Positions 47,440 through 61,356 of a DNA stretch of 64,000 nt are shown here, piece after piece. The notes beneath the pieces were generated by a model. It saw only the letters and a list, made by a program, of their open reading frames with translations. It had not been told where the DNA came from and did not search any database. Position 1 is the stretch's first letter; the number at the start of each line of letters is the position of its first letter. This stretch comes from Candidatus Latescibacterota bacterium (GTDB taxonomy: Bacteria > Latescibacterota > UBA2968), in NCBI GenBank assembly GCA_965222605.1, contig OZ244960.1:3744001-3808000 (forward strand), read 5' to 3'. Made by a program: the position numbers and the translations under genes.

Positions 47440-48174
47440 ATGAGCAAACGCAAAGATACAGCCTGGCAGGCGCGAGATCTGGCGCAGAAATATCTCAAGA
47501 ATATCCGGCAGGCAATTCCGCTGTCCGACGAACAGATTGCCGTTATGTGCCGGGTAATCAATGCGGATGATCACAGGGTAAATACTGTGCTCGATCTGGG
47601 ATGTGGTGATGGCATCCTCGGCGCTGCGGTTCTTGAACACCACCCGGATGCACGCGGCGTTTTTGTGGATTTTTCTGAGGCTATGATTGAGGCAGCGCAG
47701 AAACGGTTTGCGGGGACGGCCTCACAGCATCGTTTTGTTATTGGCGATTATGCGATGTCCGACTGGATCAGTCTGGTTGCAGATGACGCGCCTTATGATG
47801 CGATTGTATCGGGTTTTTCGATTCATCACCAGAGCGATGAACGCAAGCGCGAGGTTTATGGCGAGATTTTCGATCTGCTATCTCCCAATGGCGTGTTTGT
47901 CAATGTCGAGCATGTTCGCTCGCCGTCGAAGTGGGTTGAGTCGCGTTTTGCCGATCGCTTTATTGACGCGCTTTATGATTCTGTCACGCGGCGAGACCCA
48001 AATGCATCTCGCGATGAAATTGCACGGGCTTATTATTATCGCGATGACAAACAGGCGAATATTCTCGCGTCTGTTGAAGATCAATGTGAATGGCTCAGAG
48101 ATATTGGTTTTTCAGATGTAGATTGTTATTTCAAGCTTTTTGAACTCGCTGTTTTTGGTGGGAGAAAAATTTAA
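47440..48174 (+). CDS. Class I SAM-dependent methyltransferase
   Basis: VLDLGCGDG, VDFSEAM, YDAIVSGFSIHH. Confidence 0.9.
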   Translation: MSKRKDTAWQARDLAQKYLKNIRQAIPLSDEQIAVMCRVINADDHRVNTVLDLGCGDGILGAAVLEHHPDARGVFVDFSEAMIEAAQKRFAGTASQHRFVIGDYAMSDWISLVADDAPYDAIVSGFSIHHQSDERKREVYGEIFDLLSPNGVFVNVEHVRSPSKWVESRFADRFIDALYDSVTRRDPNASRDEIARAYYYRDDKQANILASVEDQCEWLRDIGFSDVDCYFKLFELAVFGGRKI

Positions 48175-48184
48175 TTAAAACTGG

Positions 48185-48283
48185 ATGAATACTATGTATA
48201 TGCACTATTTCCAAATCTCTCAGTTCACAGGCAATAATAATGACGATAATAATCCGATCCGGCGACGGGCTGGACCGGCATAG
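48185..48283 (+). CDS. Asn/Asp leader peptide MNTMYMHYFQISQFTGNNNDDNNPIRRRAGPA
   Basis: Seven consecutive Asn/Asp codons at 48233-48253; alternative ATGs at 48194 and 48200. Confidence 0.82.
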   Translation: MNTMYMHYFQISQFTGNNNDDNNPIRRRAGPA

Positions 48284-48343
48284 GTCGTCTTGTGCCATCA
48301 TGAAAGTGCCCGTTGTCGAAGAATGCGACAACGGGCTTTTTTT
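48260..48343 (+). promoter_or_regulatory. Attenuator of aspS
   Basis: Terminator GCCCGTTGTCG/CGACAACGGGC-T7; CGGCGACGGGC (48260-48270) pairs the 5' arm 11/11 with 2 G-U. Confidence 0.85.
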
Positions 48344-48368
48344 GTACCTAAATCAAAAGGAATTTGTC

Positions 48369-49676
48369 ATGAAATACATAGCAATATCTGAACTGTCCAA
48401 ACACATCGGCCAAAACGTTACGCTTCAGGGATGGGTGCATACCCTGCGAGACCAAAAGCATGTCCAATTTCTCATTTTGAGAAATCGCACGGGAAGTGTA
48501 CAGGTTGTTCACGAAAAGACAGGGGCGTTGGCAGGGCAGGTCTCTGCACTTACGCGAGAATCGGCGATAGCCATAAGCGGGCGCGTTGTCGAAAATTTGA
48601 GTGTTCGTCTGGGTGGTGTTGAAATTCAGCTTGCGGAGTTGCGCGTTGTCAATGTAGCCGAATCCCCGTTACCCCTGGATCCGTTTTCCGAAAATGCATC
48701 GGGTATAGATCATAGGCTGGACTGGCGGCATATTGATCTTCGCGTTCCGCGAAATCGGTTGATCTTTGAGATACAGACCACTGTTGAAAGGGCTATGCGC
48801 GAGTACTGGATGCGGAATCATTTTATTGAAATCCACTCGCCCAAATTCATGGGTACAGCCAGTGAATCGGGGGCTGAATTGTTCGCGCTGCCGTATTTCA
48901 ATACCACAGCTTATCTGGCGCAATCGCCCCAGTTTTACAAACAGATGGCGATGGCGTCTGGTTTTGATCGCGTGTTTGAGATCGCGCCCGTTTTTCGCGC
49001 CGATCCCTCGTTTACTTCGCGCCACACGACAGAGTTTACCAGTGTGGATGTTGAGATCGCATGGATTGATGGTCACGAGGATGTGATGGCGTGCGAAGAA
49101 GCGTGGCTCCAGCATGTCATTCAAGTAGTGCGAGAAAAACACGGTGACGCTATTGCCGAAAATTACGGTGTTGAAATTATGGTGCCGGCGGTGCCTTTTC
49201 CGCGCGTTACAATGGCCGAGGCATTGGCAGTGTTGTCTGAACTGGGCCACACGCCAGAGCGGGAAGGCGACCTCGATCCAAAAGGCGAACGTTTGCTCGG
49301 TGAATATATCCGGAAGACTCAGGGATGCGATTATGTCTTTGTGATAGACTACCCGGTGTCTGTGCGGCCATTTTATCACATGCGTCATGCAGAACACCCC
49401 GAGTTGACCAGGAGCTTTGACCTTCTCTGCCATGGTGTGGAGATCACTACAGGGGCGCAGCGCGAACACCGTCCCGATGTTCTGAAAGCGCAGGCAAGAG
49501 AGAAAGGGCTGGATTTAGAGACTATCCAATTTTATCTGGATTTTTTTAAGTACGGATGTCCACCGCATGGGGGATTTGGTTTTGGCCTGTCGCGCCTGCT
49601 TATGGTTATGCTCGGATTGTCCAATGTGCGCGAGACGACCTTTTTGTCTCGCACGCCCAATAGATTGCATCCATAA
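48369..49676 (+). CDS. aspS: Aspartate-tRNA(Asp/Asn) ligase, archaeal-type, probably non-discriminating
   Basis: 435 aa, no GAD insert; GWVHTLRD, YLAQSPQFYKQ, FRADPSFTSRH, GAQREHR, YGCPPHGGFG. Confidence 0.9.
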   Translation: MKYIAISELSKHIGQNVTLQGWVHTLRDQKHVQFLILRNRTGSVQVVHEKTGALAGQVSALTRESAIAISGRVVENLSVRLGGVEIQLAELRVVNVAESPLPLDPFSENASGIDHRLDWRHIDLRVPRNRLIFEIQTTVERAMREYWMRNHFIEIHSPKFMGTASESGAELFALPYFNTTAYLAQSPQFYKQMAMASGFDRVFEIAPVFRADPSFTSRHTTEFTSVDVEIAWIDGHEDVMACEEAWLQHVIQVVREKHGDAIAENYGVEIMVPAVPFPRVTMAEALAVLSELGHTPEREGDLDPKGERLLGEYIRKTQGCDYVFVIDYPVSVRPFYHMRHAEHPELTRSFDLLCHGVEITTGAQREHRPDVLKAQAREKGLDLETIQFYLDFFKYGCPPHGGFGFGLSRLLMVMLGLSNVRETTFLSRTPNRLHP

Positions 49677-49710
49677 AAAAATCCCCGGCAGTTCAAAGCT
49701 GTCGGGGATT
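49675..49710. terminator. Terminator between convergent aspS and DUF2442 genes
   Basis: A-run, AATCCCCGGCAG..CTGTCGGGGATT. Confidence 0.75.
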
Positions 49711-49729: not shown

Positions 49730-50026
49730 TTATTTTGTCCGCGTCGCCAACCAGCGCTGAATAGACTGCTTACTCTCGCTGCTATGCCTACCAGCCAACA
49801 AACCTTCAATACCGATATGCTCATCCAAATCAGGCCATTCAATAGCATATCCATCGCCTAACAACTGCCAGTTTTGCCGCTCCGCATTTGTTCCATGCAT
49901 CAGACGAGGATACCATTTAAAAGGAATGGAAAAACTACGCCCATCCTCTAACGATACGATAAACTTTCTATCTTCCATTTGAACATCAATAGCTACAGGT
50001 TCAATTTCAAGCATTAAAGTGGTCAT
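49730..50026 (-). CDS. DUF2442 domain protein (putative antitoxin)
   Basis: VSLEDGR..SIP..WYPRL..T..ERQNW...IEWPDLDEHI.IEGLLAG. Confidence 0.9.
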   Translation of the reverse strand: MTTLMLEIEPVAIDVQMEDRKFIVSLEDGRSFSIPFKWYPRLMHGTNAERQNWQLLGDGYAIEWPDLDEHIGIEGLLAGRHSSESKQSIQRWLATRTK

Positions 50027-61166: not shown

Positions 61167-61356
61167 TATATACTGATGTTACGCATGTCAGGCGTTTTGT
61201 CATGCTGAGCGGAGTGGAACGGAGCCGAAGCATCTGTTCCACCTGCGTTAGTAGTAGATGAACTGCTATCGCAGTTGTACACCGCTCCTTCGACTACGCT
61301 ACGCTCAGAATGACAGGCACATTATATTGTGCCTATGCGTAACGTTCAGTTATATA
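61167..61356. mobile_element. MITE/REPIN-like element containing an inverted REP doublet
   Basis: Outer IR TATATACTGATGTTACGCAT / ATGCGTAACGTTCAGTTATATA; inner GTCATGCTGAGCGGAG..GAAGCATCT / CTTCGACT..GCTCAGAATGAC. Confidence 0.7.

Follow-up and report, generated by a model that had tools for sequence, protein, structure and literature searches.

Leader-peptide attenuation is classically represented by trpL, hisL, leuL, thrL and the ilv leaders, and by pheM-pheST of Escherichia coli, the last of which shows that an aminoacyl-tRNA synthetase can be placed under this type of control. In the Firmicutes, aspS and asnS carry T-box riboswitches, in which uncharged tRNA brings about read-through of a terminator before the synthetase gene. 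TnaC and SpeFL are arrest peptides that control Rho-dependent termination, while ermK, vmlR and bmrCD are examples of drug-sensing leader attenuation. The physiology of an archaeal-type aspartyl-tRNA synthetase (AspRS2) acting together with GatCAB has reportedly been studied in Thermus thermophilus and Deinococcus radiodurans and, to our knowledge, no leader-peptide control is known for the AspRS2 genes of Thermus or Deinococcus. Here we describe the aspS2 gene for an archaeal-type AspRS in a 64,000-nucleotide stretch of DNA from a Latescibacterota bacterium (hereafter the window), and the element of about 160 nt that precedes it. Comparative sequence analysis indicates that this element is very probably an attenuator and that, as a ribosome-mediated device, it probably adjusts the expression of the accessory AspRS2 to how much charged tRNA(Asn) and tRNA(Asp) is available. 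An earlier note on this DNA had proposed an Asn/Asp leader-peptide transcription attenuator on an archaeal-type aspS, and this core reading is supported by both conservation among orthologues and covariation.

The longest form of the leader open reading frame (ORF) extends over 48185-48283 on the + strand and encodes, in 32 codons, MNTMYMHYFQISQFTGNNNDDNNPIRRRAGPA*. An unannotated frame of this length, with the codons AAT AAT AAT GAC GAT AAT AAT, was the starting point of the earlier note. Both the frame and the run are present (Table 1), but the peptide is likely to have 29 residues (MYMHYFQ...GPA), because the start conserved in the orthologues aligns with the second ATG of the window's frame, at 48194. 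This start is found in 12 of the 13 other genus-level orthologues; the remaining one (G006) has ATA at the aligned position and starts three codons upstream. Across lineages, the leader ORFs comprise 29-44 codons up to a conserved Pro, begin with a conserved ATG and are predicted to be translated. Those of family f2 have 44 codons up to the Pro and GGAG or AGGAG 8-9 nt 5' of the ATG. When the entire 6.34-Mb genome is translated in all six frames, no more than two runs of at least seven consecutive Asn or Asp residues appear, the run in the window being one of them; thus NNNDDNN is not a product of chance and the observation is real. Among the orthologous leaders the run consists of 7-8 NAY codons dominated by Asn. 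A tally of the eight codons before P-I in 13 non-redundant leaders gives 52 Asn, 19 Asp and 15 His for 104 positions, and where N, D, H and P stand in the run differs from lineage to lineage.

The terminator stem begins 24 bases after the leader stop and has 11 pairs, eight of them G-C, which bears out the perfect 11-bp stem with T7 given in the earlier note. That note also had a segment inside the leader (region 2) pair "fully" with the 5' arm of the terminator (region 3). All 11 positions do pair, although nine of the pairs are Watson-Crick and two are G-U. The antiterminator and terminator duplexes are of similar strength (-22.3 vs -23.0 kcal/mol). The 198-nt leader region (48175-48372) has a folding z of -3.54 against shuffles, and its minimum-free-energy fold combines a hairpin across 48242-48289 with the terminator. 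Compensatory changes, which the earlier note had suggested looking for, occur in both alternative structures: when 17 leaders are aligned, 96.8% of cells in the terminator are paired and five of its pairs have changed on both sides, and for the antiterminator (alignment columns 52-62 with 115-125) the values are 95.2% and three pairs, counts that overstate independence since the sequences are related. Slid controls for the antiterminator pairing gave 26-59% of cells paired. At one of the compensatory pairs in the antiterminator, pairing is regained through the replacement of an Arg codon by a Gln codon. For the whole leader, four lineages even have the antiterminator as their minimum-free-energy fold. 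The 1:2 pairing, by which region 2 would be sequestered, employs lineage-specific partners that are not alignable across lineages: the window's genus has a strong local hairpin (hairpin A in Table 1), and other lineages use a strand just upstream of the run, often a weak one.

In the proposed mechanism, scarcity of Asn-tRNA or Asp-tRNA would stall the ribosome in the run and leave region 2 free. The free region 2 would pair with region 3 as the 2:3 antiterminator, and RNA polymerase would read into aspS2. The additional AspRS2, if it charges tRNA(Asn), would yield Asp-tRNA that GatCAB could transform to Asn-tRNA without the use of free asparagine. With a good supply, the ribosome would proceed to R-A-G-P, where the nascent chain would arrest it while Gly occupies the P site and Pro the A site; in this state it would cover region 2, so that the terminator would form and transcription would stop. 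The arrest is the least certain step of this mechanism, and we give it a little better than an even chance.

The earlier note had named a lack of conservation of the N/D run in orthologues as grounds for refutation, and its reading survives this test: orthologues from three families retain the N/D-rich run together with the ORF, the terminator and the pairing of the antiterminator. A protein search found AspRS2 in 20 of 41 relatives, and 19 of these 20 loci have an upstream leader with RAGP; the sole exception (G022) has a stop codon inside aspS2, and its motif has decayed to NPIRRWRPP. At the level of the phylum (168 genomes), the corresponding search identified AspRS2 in 37 genomes, belonging to families f1, f2 and f3, and in none of the 76 genomes of family f4. 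The codons of P-I-(R/Q)-R-R-A-G-P were matched at 29 places in 28 of the 168 genomes, compared with 2 for the reversed pattern used as a control. Leader-type sequences account for 24 of these places (23 before aspS2 and one remnant in G011), the other five being chance matches inside long GC-rich frames. G077, which belongs to family f3, has the leader ...LNPNPNSNFDNCAIRRRAGPWF* and a terminator. In G089 there are stops in aspS2 and the motif has decayed to NPIRRRRHP. No leader was found in the upstream regions of G079 and G086 or upstream of the 40%-identical AspRS genes of small genomes.

A global scan with the same pattern, using one genome per species (185,579 species), returned 48 loci. 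Nineteen are leader-type and 18 of these are followed by AspRS2; 17 of the 19 are labelled Latescibacter*, one Gemmatimonadota and one 'bacterium'. The remaining 29 loci are chance matches in long GC-rich frames without AspRS2. As an unbiased outgroup, we employed the best 80 of 580 metagenomic AspRS homologues (57-64% identical). None of 74 of them has an N/D run and a terminator together upstream (six with less than 250 nt of upstream sequence were dropped), one having an N/D window without a terminator and two having terminator-like hairpins without an N/D window. The motif R[AGS][GP]P occurs in some frame in 7 of 73 loci (seven with less than 200 nt upstream were dropped), none of them leader-like. 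Because none of the 74 homologues shares the element, and because the phylum and global scans place the leaders before AspRS2, the element is, as judged from these scans, specific to one class of the Latescibacterota and linked to this aspS2 clade.

Several loci differ in ways that touch on the history of the element. In G011 (L041; also L084), a member of the window's genus, the leader and terminator are intact and, of aspS2, only the last few codons remain, followed by the downstream hairpin, which looks like a recent loss of the regulated gene. In genus g3 (G022, L024/L114; G089, L109) the decayed motif reads RRWRPP or RRRRHP in place of RAGP, but the Asn-rich part can still be made out; these genomes have 1-3 AsnB genes over the cut-off (G022). 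Three members of the window's genus (L007, L009 and L018) carry about 90 nt of inserted sequence between the terminator and the ribosome-binding site of aspS2. At the core of the insertion is a short dispersed repeat, for which the genome of the window has 11 matches, one of them at 61172-61242.

Table 1. Features of the aspS2 locus; positions refer to the window.
Feature	Position	Strand	Description
Weak Shine-Dalgarno-like GGA	48183..48185	+	8 nt before the conserved leader start
Leader ORF, 29 codons and TAG	48194..48283	+	Start conserved in the genus
Seven sensing codons, AAT AAT AAT GAC GAT AAT AAT (NNNDDNN)	48233..48253	+	Asn-dominated NAY run in 13/13 non-redundant leaders
Hairpin A, putative 1:2 anti-antiterminator of the genus	48242..48289	+	Stems 48242-47/48284-89, 48254-56/48276-78 and 48258-63/48269-74
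Peptide core P-I-R-R-R-A-G-P	48254..48277	+	Gly codon 48272-48274, Pro codon 48275-48277
Region 2, antiterminator arm CGGCGACGGGC (RRR and A codons)	48260..48270	+	Pairs with 48308-48318
Intrinsic terminator	48308..48343	+	Region 3 48308-48318 GCCCGTTGTCG, 7-nt loop, region 4 48326-48336 CGACAACGGGC, T7 48337-48343
Shine-Dalgarno sequence of the AspRS gene	48357..48361	+	AAGGA
Archaeal-type aspartyl-tRNA synthetase (AspRS2), 435 aa	48369..49676	+	Regulated gene, monocistronic

The most conserved element of the leader is the RAGP end of the peptide, which is absent from the earlier note. The SecM arrest sequence has RAGP as its C-terminal core, which takes the same conformation at the peptidyl-transferase centre as RAPP (PMC12992588; PMC10987492), and in YwcI of Bacillus subtilis the arrest occurs at RAGP, Gly being in the P site (PMC10987492; PMC12992588). 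The Arg of the arrest core is described as irreplaceable, bacterial proteomes as avoiding RAPP-like motifs, and most RAPP-like segments from ordinary proteins as giving no arrest (PMC12992588; PMC10987492); a RAPP-like core needs a permissive adjacent upstream region, the sequence of which is variable (PMC12992588). In a proxy proteome of the window's own genome, made up of 3970 long ORFs, RAGP is observed 8 times versus 38.2 expected, a ratio of 0.21 that is the lowest among the 24 permutations of R, A, G and P (0.37-0.97 for the others). RGPP is observed 0 times versus 22 expected, and RAPP reaches 0.34 of expectation. This Latescibacterota genome avoids arrest-prone motifs, as reported for cultured phyla. 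Other small ORFs with RAGP, RAPP or RGPP before terminators were sought in the same genome: there are 72 small ORFs, eight of them with a hairpin, and only the aspS2 leader is convincing; a family of such leaders was not found.

Among the 17 aligned leaders, the invariant core is I-(R/Q)-R-R-A-G-P, with RAGP in all 17. Within P-I-R-R-R-A-G-P, variable columns number one of eight at the first codon position, two of eight at the second and eight of eight at the third. The Ala and Gly codons use all four third bases and the final Pro codon has G or A, whereas the Ala, Gly and Pro codons are invariant at their first two bases. The codon after Pro is variable at all three positions, so that conservation ends exactly at Pro, and the tails that follow are 1-4 residues long (A*, AYA*, WFGS*, WHT*, KCA*, NGS*, IYA*, IYG*, IDG* and WF*); in G026 no stop follows RAGP, and the frame would continue past the terminator. 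Three observations, namely the abrupt loss of conservation after Pro, the pattern of changes at third positions and the degenerate motif at pseudogene loci, argue for selection acting on the peptide itself, and a reason for such selection would be that the arrested ribosome sits on region 2. We consider a functional RAGP arrest of the ribosome to be somewhat more probable than its absence.

A second, weakly conserved motif, [YFHST]-[QRHS]-I-[ATSN], is seen near the N-terminus of the leader peptides of all three families (48203-48220 in the window). Examples are YFQIS, IFRIT, VYRIA, IHSIA, IHQIA and TSIS, at 20-33 residues from RAGP, and the motif could be a peptide signal or an RNA signal.

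A simpler explanation, which we regard as unlikely, is that the element is a classical attenuator only, in which the ribosome reaches the stop as in trp and his and in which PIRRRAGP is kept for the sake of region 2 and the 1:2 stem. The RRRA codons are indeed the antiterminator arm and covary with the terminator, so that their conservation is partly an RNA constraint; the third positions of the Ala and Gly codons join lineage-specific 1:2 pairings; and RAGP alone is often insufficient for arrest (PMC10987492). Against this, no change is seen in the first two bases of the Ala, Gly or Pro codon, the pairing partner of this stretch differs by lineage, the conservation stops precisely at Pro, and RAGP is the most avoided permutation in the proteome.

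The position of the ribosome bears on the same choice. For the folding predictions the transcript ended just before region 4, and an assumed footprint was masked that reached 13 nt upstream of the P-site codon and 12 nt downstream of the first A-site base. Under these conditions, the 12 leaders examined form the antiterminator (10-11 pairs) as long as the A site has advanced no further than about the second-last codon of the run, and lose it with the A site from P-I through RAGP. Eight of the 12, whose tails comprise three or four codons, regain it once the A site is at the last codons or the stop; thus only a ribosome held at RAGP covers region 2 in these leaders, which speaks against a stop-based mechanism, as does the G026 frame. 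The proposal of the earlier note that a ribosome at the stop favours termination agrees with the predicted folds in the window's genus, where the stop comes one codon after Pro and a ribosome there still masks region 2 (G000, G001 and G023), a point in favour of the classical explanation, but not with those of these eight leaders. The RAGP end therefore probably changes the mechanism from that of the earlier note, in that nascent-chain arrest, and not merely arrival at the stop, would park the ribosome. In its full form, our proposal is a two-stall attenuator, in which a hunger stall on the NAY codons would be the ON state and a SecM-type RAGP arrest of a tiny cytosolic peptide would be the OFF state. 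For this complete combination we judge the chances to be slightly under even, and it is put forward tentatively.

The converse simplification, a pure arrest-peptide switch without sensing of Asn or Asp, would make the N/D/H stretch the 'N-terminal adjacent region' that enables arrest at RAGP, and the leader would then report translation capacity, the status of Pro-tRNA or EF-P, or a small molecule bound in the tunnel. The requirement of RAPP-like cores for an adjacent upstream region of variable sequence (PMC12992588) agrees with such a switch, as do the good conservation of the residues N-P-I beside the core and the prediction that the untranslated RNA of family f2 is in the ON form. In family f2, moreover, His and one Tyr replace Asn and Asp, so that polar, NAY-encoded residues are kept. 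We nevertheless find this explanation improbable. The positions of N, D, H and P shift between lineages, as expected of codon counting and not of a fixed contact in the tunnel; Asn fills half of the run positions tallied above; a run of seven N/D residues is almost unique in the genome; and the regulated enzyme acts on tRNA(Asp) and possibly on tRNA(Asn).

The codons before P-I in G037, G083, G085, G084 and G040 encode DHNNDEHN, YNDNNNHN, NHNHNDHN, DHHNNHHD and DHNNNHHG, respectively. In some runs of the f2 type His is as frequent as Asn, and the runs are almost purely NAY (Asn, Asp, His, Tyr). NAY is the codon set of the queuosine-34 tRNAs, and tgt is present in the window's own genome. As a bolder extension of the proposal, the run may report the state of the whole queuosine-34 tRNA group and not of asparagine alone.

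A third explanation dispenses with leader regulation altogether: the hairpin would be the terminator of an upstream methyltransferase gene, and AATAAT the -10 box of an aspS2 promoter at 48224-48253. The sequence TTCACA-18-AATAAT scores 10/12, the methyltransferase gene ends at 48174, and a contig from an RNA library runs from this gene into the leader. However, the terminator would still come after a promoter at 48224-48253, and the 25 nt from the T-tract to the ATG leave no room for another. The upstream gene varies within the genus, while the leader and the terminator always accompany aspS2; the -35-like hexamer and AATAAT are not kept in the other families, where the frame, its start and RAGP are kept; and the number of promoter-like sites in the region is 4, compared with 4.5 in shuffles. 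We consider this explanation highly improbable, and AATAAT was rejected as a promoter on the grounds that it is not kept beyond the genus and is in any case followed by the terminator. A T-box or other known riboswitch was likewise rejected for want of an Rfam match: a search of the window region at E up to 10 and of six orthologous loci at E up to 0.1 gave no family match, the only hit among the six loci being an unrelated, sub-threshold sRNA.

Sequence analysis of the downstream gene product agrees with its assignment as an AspRS of the archaeal type. The long ORF (48240-49676) begins further upstream, but the start of the enzyme is the ATG at 48369, which is 25 nt after the T-tract. AspRS2 scores 503.5 bits with NCBIfam NF003483 (the 'aspartate--tRNA(Asn) ligase' equivalog; cut-off 353) and 406 bits with TIGR00458, also over the cut-off, and its best solved relatives are the archaeal-type AspRS 3NEL and 1B8A and the Thermus AspRS2 1N9W. 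The determinants of a non-discriminating AspRS are said to include a His residue and a Pro before the GG of the L1 loop. Both observations of the earlier note on these residues were borne out. The His of GWVH is present, as in the non-discriminating Thermus AspRS2 (1N9W, which has GFLH), while the discriminating Thermococcus enzyme has Trp at this position. The L1-loop Pro is absent, Leu being found where Thermus has Pro before GG, and the orthologues read NP.V[RK]LGG, with a Pro four residues earlier. AspRS2 is a possible but unproven non-discriminating enzyme, one that may charge tRNA(Asn).

Directly after the AspRS stop, a hairpin (ATCCCCGGCAG...CTGTCGGGGAT; 49681-49709) is preceded by an A-run and precedes a convergent ORF of 98 aa (49730-50026, - strand). 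It is probably a terminator common to aspS2 and the convergent ORF, and because this terminator-like hairpin follows the AspRS stop, aspS2 is taken to be monocistronic. In the predicted fold of the read-through RNA, 48298-48307 pairs with 48362-48372, at the region of the AspRS start codon, and the U-tract (48337-48344) pairs with 48354-48361, the AAAAGGA Shine-Dalgarno stretch. These pairings of the terminator flanks and the U-tract could constitute a second, translational layer of control.

The genome of the window (G000) is a single contig of 6.34 Mb that is 98.7% complete. The earlier note had proposed a search for asnS, gatCAB and a second aspS, and the genome encodes AsnRS (554 bits), GatB (577 bits) and a bacterial-type AspRS of 591 aa whose gene adjoins hisS. 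EpmA is also encoded, as are one tRNA(Asn) and one tRNA(Asp). In this genome AsnA was not found, and the best family match for AsnB was 126-131 bits against a cut-off of 267, with none over the cut-off. AsnRS is present in 39 of the 41 relatives. Within the genus, AspRS2 occurs in 14 of 21 genomes (G000 included) and is absent from seven. An AsnB over the cut-off is found in 1 of the 14 genomes with AspRS2 and in 3 of the 7 without, so that four genomes have neither; AspRS2 is therefore not the only route to Asn-tRNA. The notion that AspRS2 is the 'sole route to asparagine' was rejected, as its complementarity with AsnB is only partial.

A number of observations weigh against the two-stall attenuator or parts of it, in addition to the insufficiency of RAGP alone and the double duty of the RRRA codons mentioned above. 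The Shine-Dalgarno sequence of the leader is weak in the window's genus (GGA). In family f2, up to half of the run consists of His codons, which sensing of Asn and Asp leaves unexplained. When the uncut transcript is folded at equilibrium, 4 of 7 leaders (G000, which is the only member of genus g1 tested, G024, G036 and G077) favour the terminator wherever the ribosome stands, switching being seen in three f2 leaders; the model thus needs kinetic, co-transcriptional folding in addition to the assumed footprint. The known RAPP-like arrest peptides are mostly secreted or membrane proteins released by a pulling force, and by inspection the leaders of 29-44 aa have no hydrophobic, signal or membrane segment. 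The L1-loop Pro before GG, a requirement of the archaeal-type non-discriminating AspRS, is missing. AspRS2 itself is accessory and dispensable in the genus. Finally, metatranscriptome contigs from four libraries cover relatives of the leader and the gene at 90-97% likeness, but no RNA contig bridges 48303-48354; we count this point as neutral, because contigs cannot show RNA ends.

If the proposal is correct, asparagine/aspartate joins the short list of amino acids sensed by leader-peptide attenuation, in a host that belongs to an uncultured phylum in which gene regulation is not known to have been studied. There is also a regulatory argument, by which the accessory archaeal-type AspRS would be inducible and would lead to Asn-tRNA independently of asparagine. 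The conservation of the RAGP end suggests that an attenuator can use nascent-chain arrest to hold a ribosome on one RNA strand; if so, this would be the first arrest peptide to serve as the termination lock of an amino-acid attenuator, and a case of RAPP-like arrest without secretion-linked release. In the literature searched, the coverage of which was incomplete, neither an Asn/Asp leader peptide nor an arrest motif within an amino-acid attenuator is described. Studies of arrest peptides connect RAPP-like motifs chiefly with secretion, metal and redox genes (PMC12992588) and leave open the arrest-based regulation of other genes.

With the classical attenuators, the aspS2 leader has in common a short ORF with codons for the sensed amino acids, alternative 2:3 and 3:4 pairings with a putative 1:2 pairing, and an intrinsic terminator before the gene. 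It differs from them in the amino acids that it would sense (Asn and Asp, with His in one family), in its host (Latescibacterota), in its target (an accessory archaeal-type AspRS), and in ending with a conserved arrest-type motif on region 2. The T-boxes of aspS and asnS would share its regulatory purpose; however, the leader has no Rfam match to the T-box, is too short for one and shows conservation of the coding type. The gene content resembles the arrangement in Thermus thermophilus and Deinococcus radiodurans, namely a bacterial AspRS, an archaeal-type AspRS2, AsnRS and GatB, with no AsnA found and no AsnB match over the cut-off. The His at the GWVH position is likewise shared with the Thermus AspRS2, whereas AspRS2 is accessory in the present genus and the L1-loop Pro does not stand at the Thermus position.

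As in TnaC, SpeFL, ermK, vmlR and bmrCD, a ribosome stalled on the leader ORF would decide whether transcription enters the downstream gene. In those systems the stall induced by a ligand or drug is the ON state, whereas in the aspS2 leader a constitutive arrest is proposed to be the OFF state, with a hunger stall further upstream as the ON signal. The C-terminal core R-A-G-P is identical with that of SecM and YwcI (PMC12992588; PMC10987492). In common with the RAPP-like arrest peptides at large (SecM, ApdA, ApdP, ApcA, YwcI and CruR), conservation ends at the Pro that would occupy the A site (PMC12992588; PMC10987492; PMC10951299), and the motif lies few codons before the stop of a small upstream ORF and is avoided in the host proteome. 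Unlike those peptides, the aspS2 leader, with its 29-44 aa, lacks a signal peptide or membrane segment and has no obvious force for release. Its proposed output is intrinsic termination and not the unmasking of a downstream ribosome-binding site, and its arrest would give the OFF state, in combination with a run of starvation codons.

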